DNA of 64,000 nt from Candidatus Parcubacteria bacterium (GCA_023444045.1 JAEZRQ010000006.1:177786-241785); one strand, 5' to 3'; shown: positions 4,185-7,407, counted from the first letter of the stretch. The notes: generated by a model not told the origin, from the sequence alone. Program-made: numbers and translations.

Positions 4185-4232
4185 TATTAAATAATGAAAT
4201 ATTTTTATACTCCTCCTTCCTATATTGCTCCA

Positions 4233-4258
4233 TCACAAAATTGTGACGGAATTGTGAC
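4233..4258. promoter_or_regulatory. Protein-binding site candidate: palindrome TCACAAAATTGTGA overlapping two ATTGTGAC direct repeats 11 bp apart
   Basis: ATTGTGAC occurs at 4240-4247 and 4251-4258. The palindrome spans 4233-4246. The same arrangement recurs at 6036-6061. Confidence 0.5.
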
Positions 4259-4390
4259 CGAGAGGGTATAAAAACGTGATAAACCAGATAACTTGAGACC
4301 AAAGCTCATTTTTACTAAAAACCAATATTTACAGTAGAATAATCGATTTTATTAGGGTTTTTGAAGTTTTTTAAACTTGCCAAACTCATT

Positions 4391-4412
4391 TTCGAATCCC
4401 TTACTCTCCGCA
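4391..4412 (+). other. tRNA 3'-half-like segment (T-loop, T-stem, acceptor, discriminator); att core candidate, copy 1
   Basis: TTCGAAT (canonical T-loop), CCCTT (T-stem 3' strand), ACTCTCC (acceptor 3' strand), then G. This closely resembles the 3' ends of bacterial tRNA-Ser genes as I remember them. The upstream bases do not form the matching T-stem, so it is a fragment and not a gene. Confidence 0.6.
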
Positions 4413-4415
4413 CTT

Positions 4416-4446
4416 AAAAAATAGGCTAAAATTAGCCTATTTTTGT
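4416..4446 (+). terminator. Rho-independent terminator after att core copy 1
   Basis: AAAAATAGGCT-aaaatt-AGCCTATTTTTG. Confidence 0.7.
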
Positions 4447-4482
4447 TATATAATACGGAATAAATGCTCCTAGAAATGTGAA

Positions 4483-4501
4483 ATTGTGACGCTATTGTGA
4501 C
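4483..4501. promoter_or_regulatory. Second pair of ATTGTGAC direct repeats (11-bp phasing) overlapping the promoter of ORF 4534
   Basis: ATTGTGAC occurs at 4483-4490 and 4494-4501. TTGTGA (4495-4500) could serve as a -35 box. TGT-TATACT (4517-4525) is an extended -10 only about 9 nt from the ATG at 4534. Confidence 0.45.
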
Positions 4502-4533
4502 TATTTTTTATTAGTTTGTTATACTATTTATAT

Positions 4534-5127
4534 ATGTTTAAAGAGAATAATTTTTATCTAAATGGTGCGGAAGTAAAAACCCCAGAAAATTTAGAGGAAA
4601 ATAAAAATAAAGAAAAAATTATAAAAATAGAAAGTCTGAAAACTGGCTCACAACAAAAAGCCGAACTTATTTTGATGTTGTTAGGAGAAAAACCAGGAAT
4701 TGATTTGTCTCTTTTTGCAGACAGTGAGAATGAAATAGATGAAGATGAAGAAAAAATAAAAAGTTTAGATTTGAAGTATAAAAAAGTTAATCAAGAAAAA
4801 AGGGGACAACGGTATATGGCTGAATTTTTAATATCTCAAAATCAAGACACTTTAAATGAGTTAGCCGAGGCAGATCCATCAAAAGATCACTACAAATACG
4901 GTGCTCTAATGGGTTACCCTAAATCAGCAATTAAGGCTTTTTTAGAAGGCACATGTTTAAGTATGGAAGATGAAAGAGAACTTCTTAGTAAATATCCAGA
5001 AATAGTTTTTAATGATTTTCGTCTTTCTAAGGATAATAATAAAGAGGAATTAGAACTTGTAAAACGTTGGAATAGTTTAGTAAAGAAAGAGGCTCCTGAT
5101 GTTTATAGTGAATTATCGCCAGTCTAG
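4534..5127 (+). CDS. Hypothetical protein (197 aa), orphan cargo ORF
   Basis: ORF track 4516..5127. I prefer the ATG at 4534 over the TTG at 4516. No family recognised. Confidence 0.6.
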   Translation: MFKENNFYLNGAEVKTPENLEENKNKEKIIKIESLKTGSQQKAELILMLLGEKPGIDLSLFADSENEIDEDEEKIKSLDLKYKKVNQEKRGQRYMAEFLISQNQDTLNELAEADPSKDHYKYGALMGYPKSAIKAFLEGTCLSMEDERELLSKYPEIVFNDFRLSKDNNKEELELVKRWNSLVKKEAPDVYSELSPV

Positions 5128-5135
5128 TGTTTTTA

Positions 5136-5164
5136 TTGACAAAATGTAATTTTAATGTTATTAT
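5136..5164 (+). promoter_or_regulatory. Sigma-70-like promoter for ORF 5207
   Basis: TTGACA (5136-5141), a 17-nt spacer ending in TGT, then TATTAT (5159-5164). Confidence 0.5.
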
Positions 5165-5206
5165 GTAATTGTTTTTAAAGTAAGATTATTATTTAATTAA
5201 AAATTT

Positions 5207-6001
5207 ATGAATTTTGAAACTCCACAATCTAAAAAAAATCAAGAATCAAAAACAAATCATCTTGATTTAGCACGGCAATTGATTGAAAAAAGTGAATTAT
5301 TACAGAAAAATCCAGAAATTTTTAATAACTGGGACGGAGTGGAAGGTTTAGATTTAGAATACAAAGGAGAAGATGAAAGAAAAAAACTGGATGAAATGAT
5401 TGCGTCTGGGGAAATTTCTGCTGAAGATGTGGAAAATTTGAAAAACGAATTTAATACAAATCTAGTTAATGAAAAAATTATTGAGGGAGAAAATATAAAA
5501 CAGGAGTTTTCTGATTTTCTTAATACAACTGGAATAAATGAAGAAACCGTTGTAACTCTTGAATTAGTTTATAACAGACCAGCTACGTATAAGGTTGTAG
5601 ATATAGACAAAGAAAGATGCGTTGTTAGATTGGAAGCATTTGGAGAGAACTCTCAAATACTTGGCATAGACAGAGAGGCTTGTTTTGCTGCAGGGATGAC
5701 AGGAACTTTTAGCCTCAATAGTCTAAAAGAAGAAATAATGAAAAATCAACCAAAGACTGAAAAACAAGATAAAGATATAAATGATCTAATAAAAAATACT
5801 AACTCTTTGCCGGAATTATATAAAGTAATTGAAGGCCTAGGAGGTATTCAAGGATCGTCAGAATTTTATTCATCTGATCAGTTATGGGAACGAGTTCGTG
5901 CTTATATAAACAATGAGGCTAATGAGAATGTTATTACAAAAACTGGTGGACTTAGGGATAAAGTGATAGAACTTAAGGCTCAAAGGGAAGCTAAAAAATA
6001 A
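5207..6001 (+). CDS. Hypothetical protein (264 aa), orphan cargo ORF
   Basis: ORF track, with its own promoter. No family recognised. Confidence 0.6.
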   Translation: MNFETPQSKKNQESKTNHLDLARQLIEKSELLQKNPEIFNNWDGVEGLDLEYKGEDERKKLDEMIASGEISAEDVENLKNEFNTNLVNEKIIEGENIKQEFSDFLNTTGINEETVVTLELVYNRPATYKVVDIDKERCVVRLEAFGENSQILGIDREACFAAGMTGTFSLNSLKEEIMKNQPKTEKQDKDINDLIKNTNSLPELYKVIEGLGGIQGSSEFYSSDQLWERVRAYINNEANENVITKTGGLRDKVIELKAQREAKK

Positions 6002-6035
6002 AGATTCTTATAATCCTCCATTCCTGTATTGCCCA

Positions 6036-6061
6036 TCACAAAATTGTGACGGAATTGTGAC
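6036..6061. promoter_or_regulatory. Palindrome TCACAAAATTGTGA plus two ATTGTGAC repeats (copy 2)
   Basis: ATTGTGAC occurs at 6043-6050 and 6054-6061. The palindrome spans 6036-6049. Confidence 0.5.
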
Positions 6062-6193
6062 CGAGAGAAGATAAAAACGTGATAAACCAGATAACTTGAG
6101 ACCAAAGCTCAATTTCAAGAAAAACCAATATTTACAGTAGAATAATCGATTTTATTAGGGTTTTTTAAGTTTTTTAAACTTGCCAAACTCATT

Positions 6194-6215
6194 TTCGAAT
6201 CCCTTACTCTCCGCA
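6194..6215 (+). other. tRNA 3'-half-like att core, copy 2
   Basis: Identical 22-mer TTCGAATCCCTTACTCTCCGCA. Confidence 0.6.
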
Positions 6216-6220
6216 GATAC

Positions 6221-6251
6221 AAAAAAGCAGCTTTAATTAGTTGCTTTTTTG
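6221..6251 (+). terminator. Rho-independent terminator after att core copy 2
   Basis: AAAAAAGCAGCT-ttaatt-AGTTGCTTTTTTG, with one G:U pair in the stem. Confidence 0.65.
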
Positions 6252-6413
6252 TTATATAAAAGCTTAAATATTAAGTTCCAAAGTGGTTCGAATACTTGTA
6301 GAGAGCGAGGAATGGTTTTTATTAAAAAGACTTGTTTATATCTATTTTTAGGAAAAATTGTTTAGTTTTAAAGCAGTAACTTTTTAAAATTAGTTTTACA
6401 AAATATAATTAAA

Positions 6414-7307
6414 ATGCTATTTTTTGCTTATATGGAAAACATAAATTTTACTAACAATAATCTTGAAATTAAATCAAATACAGAAAAACCAAATCCGTCA
6501 GAAGAAACGGCTGACTTTGATAATCAAACAGAAGAACCTTCTGTTAATCAAGAGATAAATGATAAAGAGATAAATGATAAAGAGAAAATTATCGATAATA
6601 CTATAAAAGAAATAACTCGTATTAGACAGGAACTCGGATTGCCAACGGATTCAGAGTTACCACCCTCCGTGCAACAAATACAAGAGTCTATTGATAAGAT
6701 AAAAAATAAAATAGAATATTTTGAAGAAATACCAATTGAAAAAGGTAAATATTATCGAGTGACCGGTATTTCAGAGCTTCGCGCTATAGTTAAAAATAAA
6801 ACTCTAACAACACCAGACAAGTCTTATTATGATCGATCTATGCTTAGTAAGATAGCAAAAAACTCCGGTTACTCTATAGACGATCTTGAATTGATTAATT
6901 CGGAGAATCCTGAAGAAATAAGAGAATTATATAAAAAATATATTTCAGGACAGAACAATAAAAAGGGAGAGATAACTATTAAAGCTAGAACGAAAAGTAA
7001 TCACGGAGATATTGGTTTTGTAAAAGAGGGATTTTTTTATAATCCAATGAATAAAGAAGGTGGTCATTTTGGAGCACCAGTTATAGTTGGCTCAGAAGAA
7101 AAAAGTTTGTTTGAGTCAGGCGTTCACGGCTCACGTAAAGAATTATTTAATAAAGATATAGAATCAAATAGGCCAGTTGTTTTAAAAGACGGGGCTGATG
7201 CTTCAAATTTTGAATATTGGTTGCATGAAGAAGAAAAAGGTTGGAGTAAAAATAATTTCGATGATTTACAAATAAAGTTTGAAAATAAAAATAAAGAAAA
7301 CCAATAA
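6414..7307 (+). CDS. Hypothetical protein (297 aa), orphan cargo ORF
   Basis: ORF track, with an alternative ATG at 6432. It contains a 15-bp tandem repeat, GAGATAAATGATAAA x2 (6552-6581), encoding EINDKEINDK. No family recognised. Confidence 0.6.
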   Translation: MLFFAYMENINFTNNNLEIKSNTEKPNPSEETADFDNQTEEPSVNQEINDKEINDKEKIIDNTIKEITRIRQELGLPTDSELPPSVQQIQESIDKIKNKIEYFEEIPIEKGKYYRVTGISELRAIVKNKTLTTPDKSYYDRSMLSKIAKNSGYSIDDLELINSENPEEIRELYKKYISGQNNKKGEITIKARTKSNHGDIGFVKEGFFYNPMNKEGGHFGAPVIVGSEEKSLFESGVHGSRKELFNKDIESNRPVVLKDGADASNFEYWLHEEEKGWSKNNFDDLQIKFENKNKENQ

Positions 7308-7354
7308 TAATTTAATTTTCATTGGCATTTTTACAAATCTCAGTGTGAATAGAG

Positions 7355-7407
7355 TCCCTTACTCTCCTCACTTAAAAAATAGGCTAGTAATAGCTTATTT
7401 TTTGTTG
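7355..7407 (+). repeat. Repeat copy 3: truncated att core plus terminator; probable outer (chromosomal) junction
   Basis: TCCCTTACTCTCCTCA (7355-7370) matches the core from TCCC onward with a single G-to-T difference. The following CTTAAAAAATAGGCTAGTAATAGCTTATTTTTTGTT is near-identical to 4413-4446. The ~200-bp arm is absent upstream. Confidence 0.7.

Follow-up and report, generated by a model that had tools for sequence, protein, structure and literature searches.

What kind of DNA lies between repeated copies of a tRNA 3' end where no tRNA gene is present? This question is raised by the left part of a 64-kb stretch of DNA from Candidatus Parcubacteria bacterium (GCA_023444045.1 JAEZRQ010000006.1:177786-241785), here called the window, in which three tRNA-like 3' ends (cores) follow one another to the right of a tyrosine integrase gene (int). 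The window belongs to a scaffold of 542 kb that was assembled from metagenomic data and represents a Patescibacteria (candidate phyla radiation, CPR) bacterium; the two are identical apart from a 30-bp indel at 4077. Coordinates are positions in the window, and negative numbers denote DNA of the parent contig to the left of window position 1. We propose that elements integrated site-specifically at the 3' end of a tRNA-Ser(GGA) gene form a tandem array here, of which the region is the right-hand part, a reading to which we assign a probability of roughly 80%. The proposed layout is the tRNA, an element of 4.5 kb (E_A), core 1, a module of 1.8 kb (B), core 2, a segment of 1.15 kb (C), a degenerate core 3, and the chromosome.

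Repeated 3' ends of tRNA-Ser(GGA)

The 22-mer TTCGAATCCCTTACTCTCCGCA has two exact copies in the window (4391-4412 and 6194-6215), and none are expected from shuffled sequences. The 202-bp segments that end with these copies (4211-4412 and 6014-6215) match at 184/202 positions (91.1% identity) in an ungapped alignment. A repeat search returned 195 nt at 94% identity between the units of about 200 bp, and gapped alignment extends the similarity to 4188-4453 versus 5992-6259 at about 90%. The third copy is the truncated form TCCCTTACTCTCCTCA at 7355-7370; read as a 22-mer (7349-7370) it has four mismatches, and its surroundings (7352-7402) are 88% identical to those of copy 1 (4394-4444). A hairpin and a T-run, with free energies (dG) of -13 to -17 kcal/mol, follow every core (3/3); a simple terminator scan missed them because the stems are AT-rich. 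A tRNA body is found upstream of 0/3 copies, and ARAGORN reported no complete tRNA gene within the window. A preliminary description, made from the sequence alone, had claimed the exact 22-mers at these two positions, segments of roughly 90% identity without gaps, the truncated copy at 7355-7370, a terminator after each core and no tRNA body before any of them; all of this was recovered. It had also predicted that an intact tRNA gene ending in this way would adjoin int just left of the window, and such a gene is present there. The gene order on the parent contig is gatC-gatA-dsbA, tRNA-Ser(GGA), terminator. The tRNA is located between dsbA and the int stop codon, which comes 18 nt past it, and its 3' end reads ...GGTTCGAATCCCTTACTCTCCGCA and contains the exact 22-mer.

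Architecture of the proposed attachment sites

Over the 8.4 kb that begin with the tRNA and extend to the response-regulator gene, the motif [A/G]TTGTGAC occurs exactly eight times, always on the + strand and always in pairs with 11-bp phasing; none lies beyond core 2. In this distribution, each of two elements has one pair at its left and one at its right (Table 1). Elsewhere in the 64 kb the paired motif has no occurrence (0.01 expected). Phased pairs at conserved distances were found in the window and in the related sequences L029, L030, L034, L043, and L044-L046, and the motif-to-core spacing of E_A equals that in the circular L030. The arm that precedes core 1 is 87.5% identical to its counterpart in L034 and 89% identical to that in L043. 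Judged from this arrangement, the conserved units of about 200 bp are best read as P arms of phage-type attachment sites (attP; att, attachment site), and the motif pairs are by their position putative arm sites for binding of the integrase (Int). The motif resembles the reverse complement of the lambda arm-type consensus, (C/A)AGTCACTAT, a likeness that serves as a lead only.

The P' arm-site pair of E_A lies within the C-terminal tail of int (-28 to -7, corresponding to 2374-2395 in L005). Here the tail codons read S-R-H-N-P-V-T-T, and the two GTCACAA arm sites encode H346 and T350, which are conserved at 90% or more in 50 homologues of 45-69% identity. Tail residues 345-379 are predicted to be disordered by AlphaFold2 (AF2). 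Conservation of these two residues despite a disordered tail suggests that the constraint acts on the DNA, and the arm site in the DNA appears to constrain the protein sequence of the Int tail.

An unrelated phage contig, L024 (IMGVR_UViG_3300030376_005555), was considered as independent proof of the arm sites. It has the exact 21-mer AAATTGTGACGGAATTGTGAC at 12283-12303, directly after the integrase stop codon and about 100 nt from a tRNA 3'-end fragment. It was downgraded because its integrase is only 26% identical and the orientation of the motif relative to int and core is opposite. Scans of viral contigs with a 35-mer of the P arm and with the junction of core and P' arm gave no matches.

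Related elements and their junctions

The preliminary description had expected polymorphism at the predicted junctions, and relatives of the array bear this out by a free circle with an attP, by a different target, and by a different order and content of the locus. The circle is L030, which is assigned a closed length of 10.2 kb because of a 127-bp terminal overlap and has an int 47% identical to that of E_A. In its attP, a motif pair at -151/-140 is followed by the 3' end, without the body, of another tRNA, then by a terminator, and finally by a motif pair at +104/+115 that lies within the 3' end of int. This is exactly what joining the attR and attL halves of the window would give.

The element in L043 has an int that is 98% identical, the same int-xis-rep backbone and P arm, and other cargo. 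It is inserted in a gene of the Bro-N family and not at a tRNA gene. With the junctions marked by a slash, its ends read ...ATTTTTCGAAT/CCCTCACTCTCCGCA-P' and P-arm...ATTTTCGAAT/AATTCAG, and only ATTTTCGAAT is shared by both. Removal of the element in silico gives a single open reading frame (ORF), ...TETIFRIIQSIPSPKAEP..., with a Pfam Bro-N match across the junction. From these junctions it follows that the mobile unit runs from the core through int to the P arm and that strand exchange takes place in the T-loop part of the 22-mer.

The contig L034 (746 kb) comes from a related organism, with flanks 73% identical to those of the window. Its tRNA-Ser(GGA) is followed by a sequence 84% identical to window 6194-6358, then by unrelated genes, and then by a sequence 94% identical to window 7311-7373 with the same degenerate core. 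Next comes an element, here L034-D, which starts with the last 120 nt of int including the arm motifs, without an integrase body, and continues with a gene for an AAA_15 ATPase (AriA/Old/PtuA-like) and its partner. A P arm 87.5% identical to that of the window, a perfect core, and a terminator with promoter flank as at window 7371-7560 complete the order. Relative to L034, the window thus has E_A and B inserted beside the tRNA and is missing the integrase-less element at copy 3. In L044-L046, the int is 66% identical, the layout is dsbA-tRNA-Ser(GGA)-int-xis-rep, motif pairs are present on both arms, and the right-hand parts vary between strains. Finally, in L003 and L004 the rep and int are 99.9% identical to those of the window, and unrelated DNA begins at exactly the position of window 2095.

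The element E_A

E_A has a length of about 4.55 kb; its left limit is the tRNA core at -154 and its right limit the end of core 1 at 4412. Its integrase carries the domains PF00589 (4.9e-34) and PF14659 (7e-9) in Pfam and belongs to a family that is large in Patescibacteria, with 745 matches at E<=1e-40. In the AF2 model (mean predicted local distance difference test, pLDDT, 84), an N-terminal domain of three strands plus a helix is predicted before the core-binding and catalytic domains (strands 2-6, 9-16, and 19-24, helix 30-45; pLDDT 85-89). Foldseek matched the model to the integrase of Tn1549 and to lambda integrase, and with full-length lambda Int (1z1b) it gave a full-length alignment of 364 columns. 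The neighboring genes encode a helix-turn-helix (HTH) protein that resembles excisionases (Xis) and is a candidate recombination directionality factor, and a rolling-circle replication initiator (Rep). The latter is 35-40% identical to the Reps of small Bacillota rolling-circle replication (RCR) plasmids and small single-stranded DNA (ssDNA) phages, and it has a weak RepSA match. Profile searches of the E_A ORFs detected no Tra or FtsK domain; int, xis, and rep are all present. From this int-xis-RCR rep content, E_A is probably autonomous.

Beside rep, the stretch 2095-2270 is GC-rich and contains several inverted repeats in surroundings of 30% GC; it may be a candidate double-strand origin. 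No Pfam or PADLOC matches were obtained for the cargo ORFs of E_A. ORF 3834-4184 contains an acidic tandem repeat of 12-15 bp (EEEG/EEETE); the 30-bp indel between the window and the scaffold in ENA falls in this ORF, and contig L002 also ends there.

Module B

Module B (4413-6215) has a core and a pair of arm motifs at both ends. Its left motif block (4483-4501) resembles the P' block of E_A and that of L034-D. Searches with Pfam, PADLOC, and PHROG found no recombinase in ORFs 4516-5127, 5207-6001, and 6414-7307, in agreement with the earlier statement that the segments between the cores lack one. Furthermore, B has related ends of the attL and attR type, and no integration or transfer genes were found in it, as is the rule for cis-mobilizable elements (CIMEs). 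We consider B a non-autonomous CIME-like element. B carries only an arm-site block homologous to that of E_A, and L034-D keeps the last 40 codons of int. A conjugation module occurs in none of the family members examined, and descent of B from an integrative and conjugative element (ICE) or an integrative and mobilizable element (IME) by loss of its recombination and conjugation modules is therefore hypothetical.

Two suggestions of the preliminary description stood in part. The likeness to CIMEs that it had seen in both inter-core segments fits B, with its arms, its cores, and no recombinase, and is uncertain for C. The internal junctions were to be attP-like. This applies to core 1, where P arm, core, and P' motifs come together, but not to core 2, which has a P arm and no motif to its right.

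Table 1. Features of the array and its flanks (window positions)
Feature	Position	Strand	Remarks
tRNA-Ser(GGA), intact	-221..-134 (134-221 nt left of window)		ARAGORN on parent contig
P' arm of E_A	-132..-1		outside window
Last 38 int codons	-116..-1		outside window; full ORF in L005 2285-3424
Motif pair	-28/-17		+105/+116 from tRNA core; P' arm of E_A, within last int codons
Tyrosine integrase gene (int) of E_A	1..1023	-	N-terminal 341/379 codons in window
Xis-like HTH gene, candidate recombination directionality factor	1036..1233	-	Pfam HTH_17 3.5e-15; PHROG 66 excisionase
Rolling-circle Rep gene of E_A	1289..2056	-	Pfam PF23343 9e-20; PHROG 3419
Variable cargo of E_A	2272..4184		ORFs 2272-2532(-), 2683-3738(-), 3834-4184(+)
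P arm of E_A att site (putative)	4211..4390	+	motif pair ATTGTGACGGAATTGTGAC at 4240-4258
Motif pair	4240/4251	+	-151/-140 from core 1; P arm of E_A
Core 1	4391..4412	+	exact 22-mer, same as tRNA-Ser(GGA) 3' end; E_A/module B junction
Left (P'-type) end of module B	4413..4510	+	hairpin 4416-4444; motif pair ATTGTGACGCTATTGTGAC at 4483-4501
Motif pair	4483/4494	+	+71/+82 from core 1; left, P'-type end of B
Module B cargo	4516..6001	+	ORFs 4516-5127, 5207-6001; no recombinase
P arm of module B (putative)	6014..6193	+	motif pair 6043-6061, -151/-140 from core 2
Motif pair	6043/6054	+	-151/-140 from core 2; belongs to the P arm of B
Core 2	6194..6215	+	exact 22-mer, tRNA 3'-end copy; right boundary of module B
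Terminator 2 and conserved non-coding stretch	6216..6358	+	84-85% identity to L034 12166-12001; no arm motif
Orphan ORF of segment C, 297 aa	6414..7307	+	no significant family match
Right end of C and degenerate core 3	7311..7370 (core 7349-7370, ATAGAGTCCCTTACTCTCCTCA)	+	94% to L034 10199-10137
Chromosomal right flank	7371..7560	+	terminator 3 at 7374-7403, dG -13.1; response-regulator promoter region
Response-regulator gene	7570-7956		

Cargo of the family and further features

No cargo homology was found among the window elements, L043, and L034-D. Candidate anti-phage defence pairs were seen in L034 (7783-9835, the AAA_15 gene and a small partner) and in L043 (5425-7230, a DUF4276 protein beside a protein of 391 aa). 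The cargo of L044 and L045 differs, with a reverse transcriptase and bAvd, similar to a diversity-generating retroelement, in one and a methyltransferase in the other. In L045 (reverse complement 12766-13101), the tRNA-like 3' end after the P arm is a different one and lies beside tRNA-Gly(TCC), an arrangement that suggests recombination between elements at different tRNA loci. Homologues of ORF 5207-6001 of module B occur in other CPR genomes, where they are not att-associated. In the near-identical L047 and L049, a cluster with such homologues (67, 436, and 164 aa) is flipped relative to HSP20/PrsW; the segment may be invertible, or the two contigs may be alternative assemblies. The T-runs of the terminators after the tRNA-type cores (4440-4452 and 6245-6257) lead directly into TTGTTATATAA, an extended -10-like sequence that is also present after tRNA-Ser(UGA) in another CPR genome (L015 3575-3590).

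Segment C and the chromosomal junction

The position of the right-hand end of the array depends on segment C (6216-7370). The preliminary description took C as a third integrase-less module and copy 3 with terminator 3 as the original chromosomal attR, and we give this even odds. It is about equally probable that C is native DNA downstream of the tRNA, or of an insertion hot spot, and that copy 2 is the junction with the chromosome. Both ends of C are 84% and 94% identical to L034, whose chromosomal flanks are only 73% identical, and the genes between these same conserved ends are unrelated in the two genomes, as would be expected of a module with exchangeable cargo. Moreover, terminator 3 and the response-regulator promoter form a right flank common to the window, L034, and L009: L034 has the flank 7371-7560 after its last core, and L009 has it after a tRNA-Ser(UGA). 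On the other hand, no arm-type motif is present at either end of C; none was found to the right of core 2 or on either side of copy 3. The core is degenerate identically in both genomes, and in L034 the sequence of the 6216-6358 type directly follows the intact tRNA-Ser(GGA), as native DNA would. The stretch 6216-6358 would be native DNA from downstream of the tRNA or, alternatively, the end on the P' side of a third type of module. Core 3 itself is a degenerate att site, secondary or relic, which is empty here and occupied by the integrase-less element in L034.

A T-loop-like fragment, AAGTGGTTCGAATACTTGTAGAGAGCG, lies at 6276-6305, 60-90 nt to the right of core 2, and is partly conserved in L034. 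Within the right flank, a promoter-like TTGACA-17-TATTAT is found at 7504-7532 before the response-regulator gene. The contig L009 (1-360), from another sample of the same study, contains the flank of the window, identical from 7383 on, joined to an intact tRNA-Ser(UGA); its upstream part is unrelated DNA of a lineage near L017. A search of genome contigs for this tRNA-Ser(UGA) returned nine Patescibacteria loci, none from the organism of the window. A protein search with the upstream gene X of L009 returned only two near-identical Logan proteins, and none in the sample of the window. The L009 junction may reflect a real rearrangement involving tRNA-Ser loci, or a chimera that the assembly formed through the shared family of terminators. 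The idea that the hairpin of copy 3 is a recombinant of terminator 1 and the L009 terminator was dropped because the difference is a single A/G.

Alternative explanations

Several observations weigh against an array built up by successive integrations. Terminator 1, at the left end of B, is homologous to the chromosomal terminator 3, which sequential integration does not predict. The junctions at copy 3 and at core_b of L034 suggest exchange at the 3' edge of the core and not in the T-loop, so these junctions do not fit a single simple history. The P' pair of B is placed at +71/+82 and not at +105/+116, and because of this different spacing the att geometry of B may be non-functional. Its motif half at 4494 overlaps a promoter-like -35 of ORF 4516, and a regulatory role of the 4483/4494 pair is possible. 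In Int, Pfam detected no arm-binding domain. Neither an excised circle nor an empty site nor an attP junction was found for the window's own E_A or B, and the large contigs carrying these genes have the same arrangement in 4/4 cases. That invariance, the homology of terminators 1 and 3, and the overlap of the ATTGTGAC pair at 4483-4501 with a promoter-like site would all suit a single element of 7.4 kb, in which the internal copies of P arm and core arose by duplication or gene conversion and B and C were never independent. A variant of this explanation takes the copies as repeated regulatory units, for example a promoter/operator with a terminator. However, the elements of L043 (98% int) and L044 (66%) each have a single P arm and a single core as their boundaries and no internal copy, L034 has core-bounded units without int at other positions, and B has P'- and P-type pairs that are oriented as in a complete att set. 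Since close relatives carry one arm and one core each, a single composite element is unlikely, and the regulatory variant is unlikely to the same degree.

Another possibility is that each unit of about 200 nt gives rise to a small RNA whose 3' end is tRNA-like, as the preliminary description suggested; the RNA would have its own terminator, and its function would be what keeps the unit conserved. Between genomes with 73% identity in the flanking genes, the unit is indeed conserved at 88-94%, a weak promoter-like site is present at 4311-4340, and the fold has a z-score of -3.0. This score is mostly due to the terminator hairpin, though, and the opposite strand gives a similar one. Of 48 pairs, one is compensatory, in a comparison of only three sequences and hence of low power. 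Rfam gave no match at the gathering threshold or at E<=1 and ARAGORN none, and riboswitch, T-box, or leader identities of the unit were rejected, being without Rfam support. Furthermore, the unit of L043 is joined to Bro-N coding sequence, without a tRNA-like tail or terminator, and in the circular L030 the unit is simply the arm beside int. A role as att arm accounts for the conservation. An RNA-based explanation seems very improbable as the reason for the repeats, although the arm may be transcribed and a small RNA could coexist with att function.

A model of the array

In the preferred reading, a tandem array at tRNA-Ser(GGA), E_A would be an integrative rolling-circle replicon with a lambda-type heterobivalent tyrosine integrase, a Xis-like HTH protein, and Rep. 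Its attP would consist of a P arm of about 180 bp, the 22-bp copy of the tRNA 3' end, a terminator, and a P' arm whose motif pair lies in the codons of int. The L043 junctions place strand exchange within TTTTCGAAT, the T-loop part of the core, so that the crossover region is mapped to 9 bp. Because attP carries the tRNA 3' end and a terminator, integration would rebuild the tRNA and supply it with a terminator, and the old tRNA 3' end would stay at the far junction. The simplest history would be accretion, in which the integration of B came first and the tRNA that it regenerated was later the target of E_A. Circularization of B through core 1 and core 2 would give a complete attP, and Int and Xis of E_A could presumably excise B, alone or together with E_A. 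L034-D, with 40 int codons kept, may illustrate how such elements originate by deletion. C would be an older degenerate module or native DNA, ending in a decayed core without arm sites. The anatomy of the sequence, the tRNA gene, the polymorphic junctions, the circular relative, and the crossover region are shown by the data; by inference, Int would bind the motifs, excision would still occur at the present day, and B would be mobilised in trans.

A broader version of the model makes the tRNA-Ser locus an integron-like platform of exchange, at which the widespread integrase family (at least 745 homologues) would shuffle cassettes, change their order, and mobilise them in trans. These would be integrase-less and capped by terminators, would include candidate defence pairs, and would be moved between att copies and tRNA-Ser genes. 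The arm sites would be hard-wired in the coding tail of the integrase, and the P arm might be expressed as RNA. We consider this version unlikely.

Comparison with known systems

Mobile elements of CPR/Patescibacteria are poorly characterised, and the locus is a cleanly resolved example. It offers an attP architecture with the spacing of arm sites, a 9-bp crossover region, a free circular relative, and integrase-less derivatives. In metagenome-assembled genomes of CPR, this could help to delimit genomic islands and cargo that varies between strains, candidate defence genes among it; assemblies break at these repeats. In the literature searched, no published description of this int-xis-Rep family or of its att sites was found.

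Tandem CIME-ICE/IME accretions are known from streptococci (ICESt1/ICESt3-related; Pavlovic 2004, Bellanger 2011; reviewed in PMC5704250). As in these, a probably autonomous element stands in tandem with a recombinase-less one that keeps related att sites, the array grows when an att copy at the target gene's 3' end receives a further element by site-specific integration, and deletion derivatives occur, here L034-D with its 40 int codons. Unlike the streptococcal CIME-ICE arrays, the present one has no detectable conjugation or mobilisation genes, its autonomous partner is an RCR replicon of 4.5 kb, and its host belongs to the CPR. Cis- or trans-mobilisation is hypothetical here. The ssrA islands of Dehalococcoides are likewise tandem, bounded by repeats of the ssrA 3' end, and inserted in the T-loop (PMC3146451). 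The two systems share multiple tandem units after an RNA gene and direct repeats of about 20 bp of its 3' end; the Dehalococcoides islands, too, are often without an integration module and carry strain-specific cargo. They use serine recombinases and ssrA, whereas a probably heterobivalent tyrosine integrase, long att arms, and tRNA-Ser are found here. Crossover in the T-loop of a tRNA is also known from phage Ms6 (PMC1762012).

With the actinomycete integrative and conjugative elements (AICEs) of the pSAM2/SLP1 type, E_A shares the int-xis-RCR rep module and the integration into a tRNA 3' end that is thereby reconstituted, and the phased, putative arm-type repeats on both arms are as in AICEs and lambda-type attP. 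It differs from AICEs by the lack of FtsK-like Tra or Spd genes and by a much smaller size, by P' arm sites located in the coding tail of the integrase, and by a Rep whose nearest counterparts are found in small Bacillota plasmids and ssDNA phages. The mode of action would be that of lambda-type elements integrating at tRNA genes. In the absence of transfer genes, the elements are not ICEs, IMEs, or AICEs in the strict sense. The array repeats the known paradigms of accretion with CIMEs and of integration into tRNA genes, in a host that is little studied.

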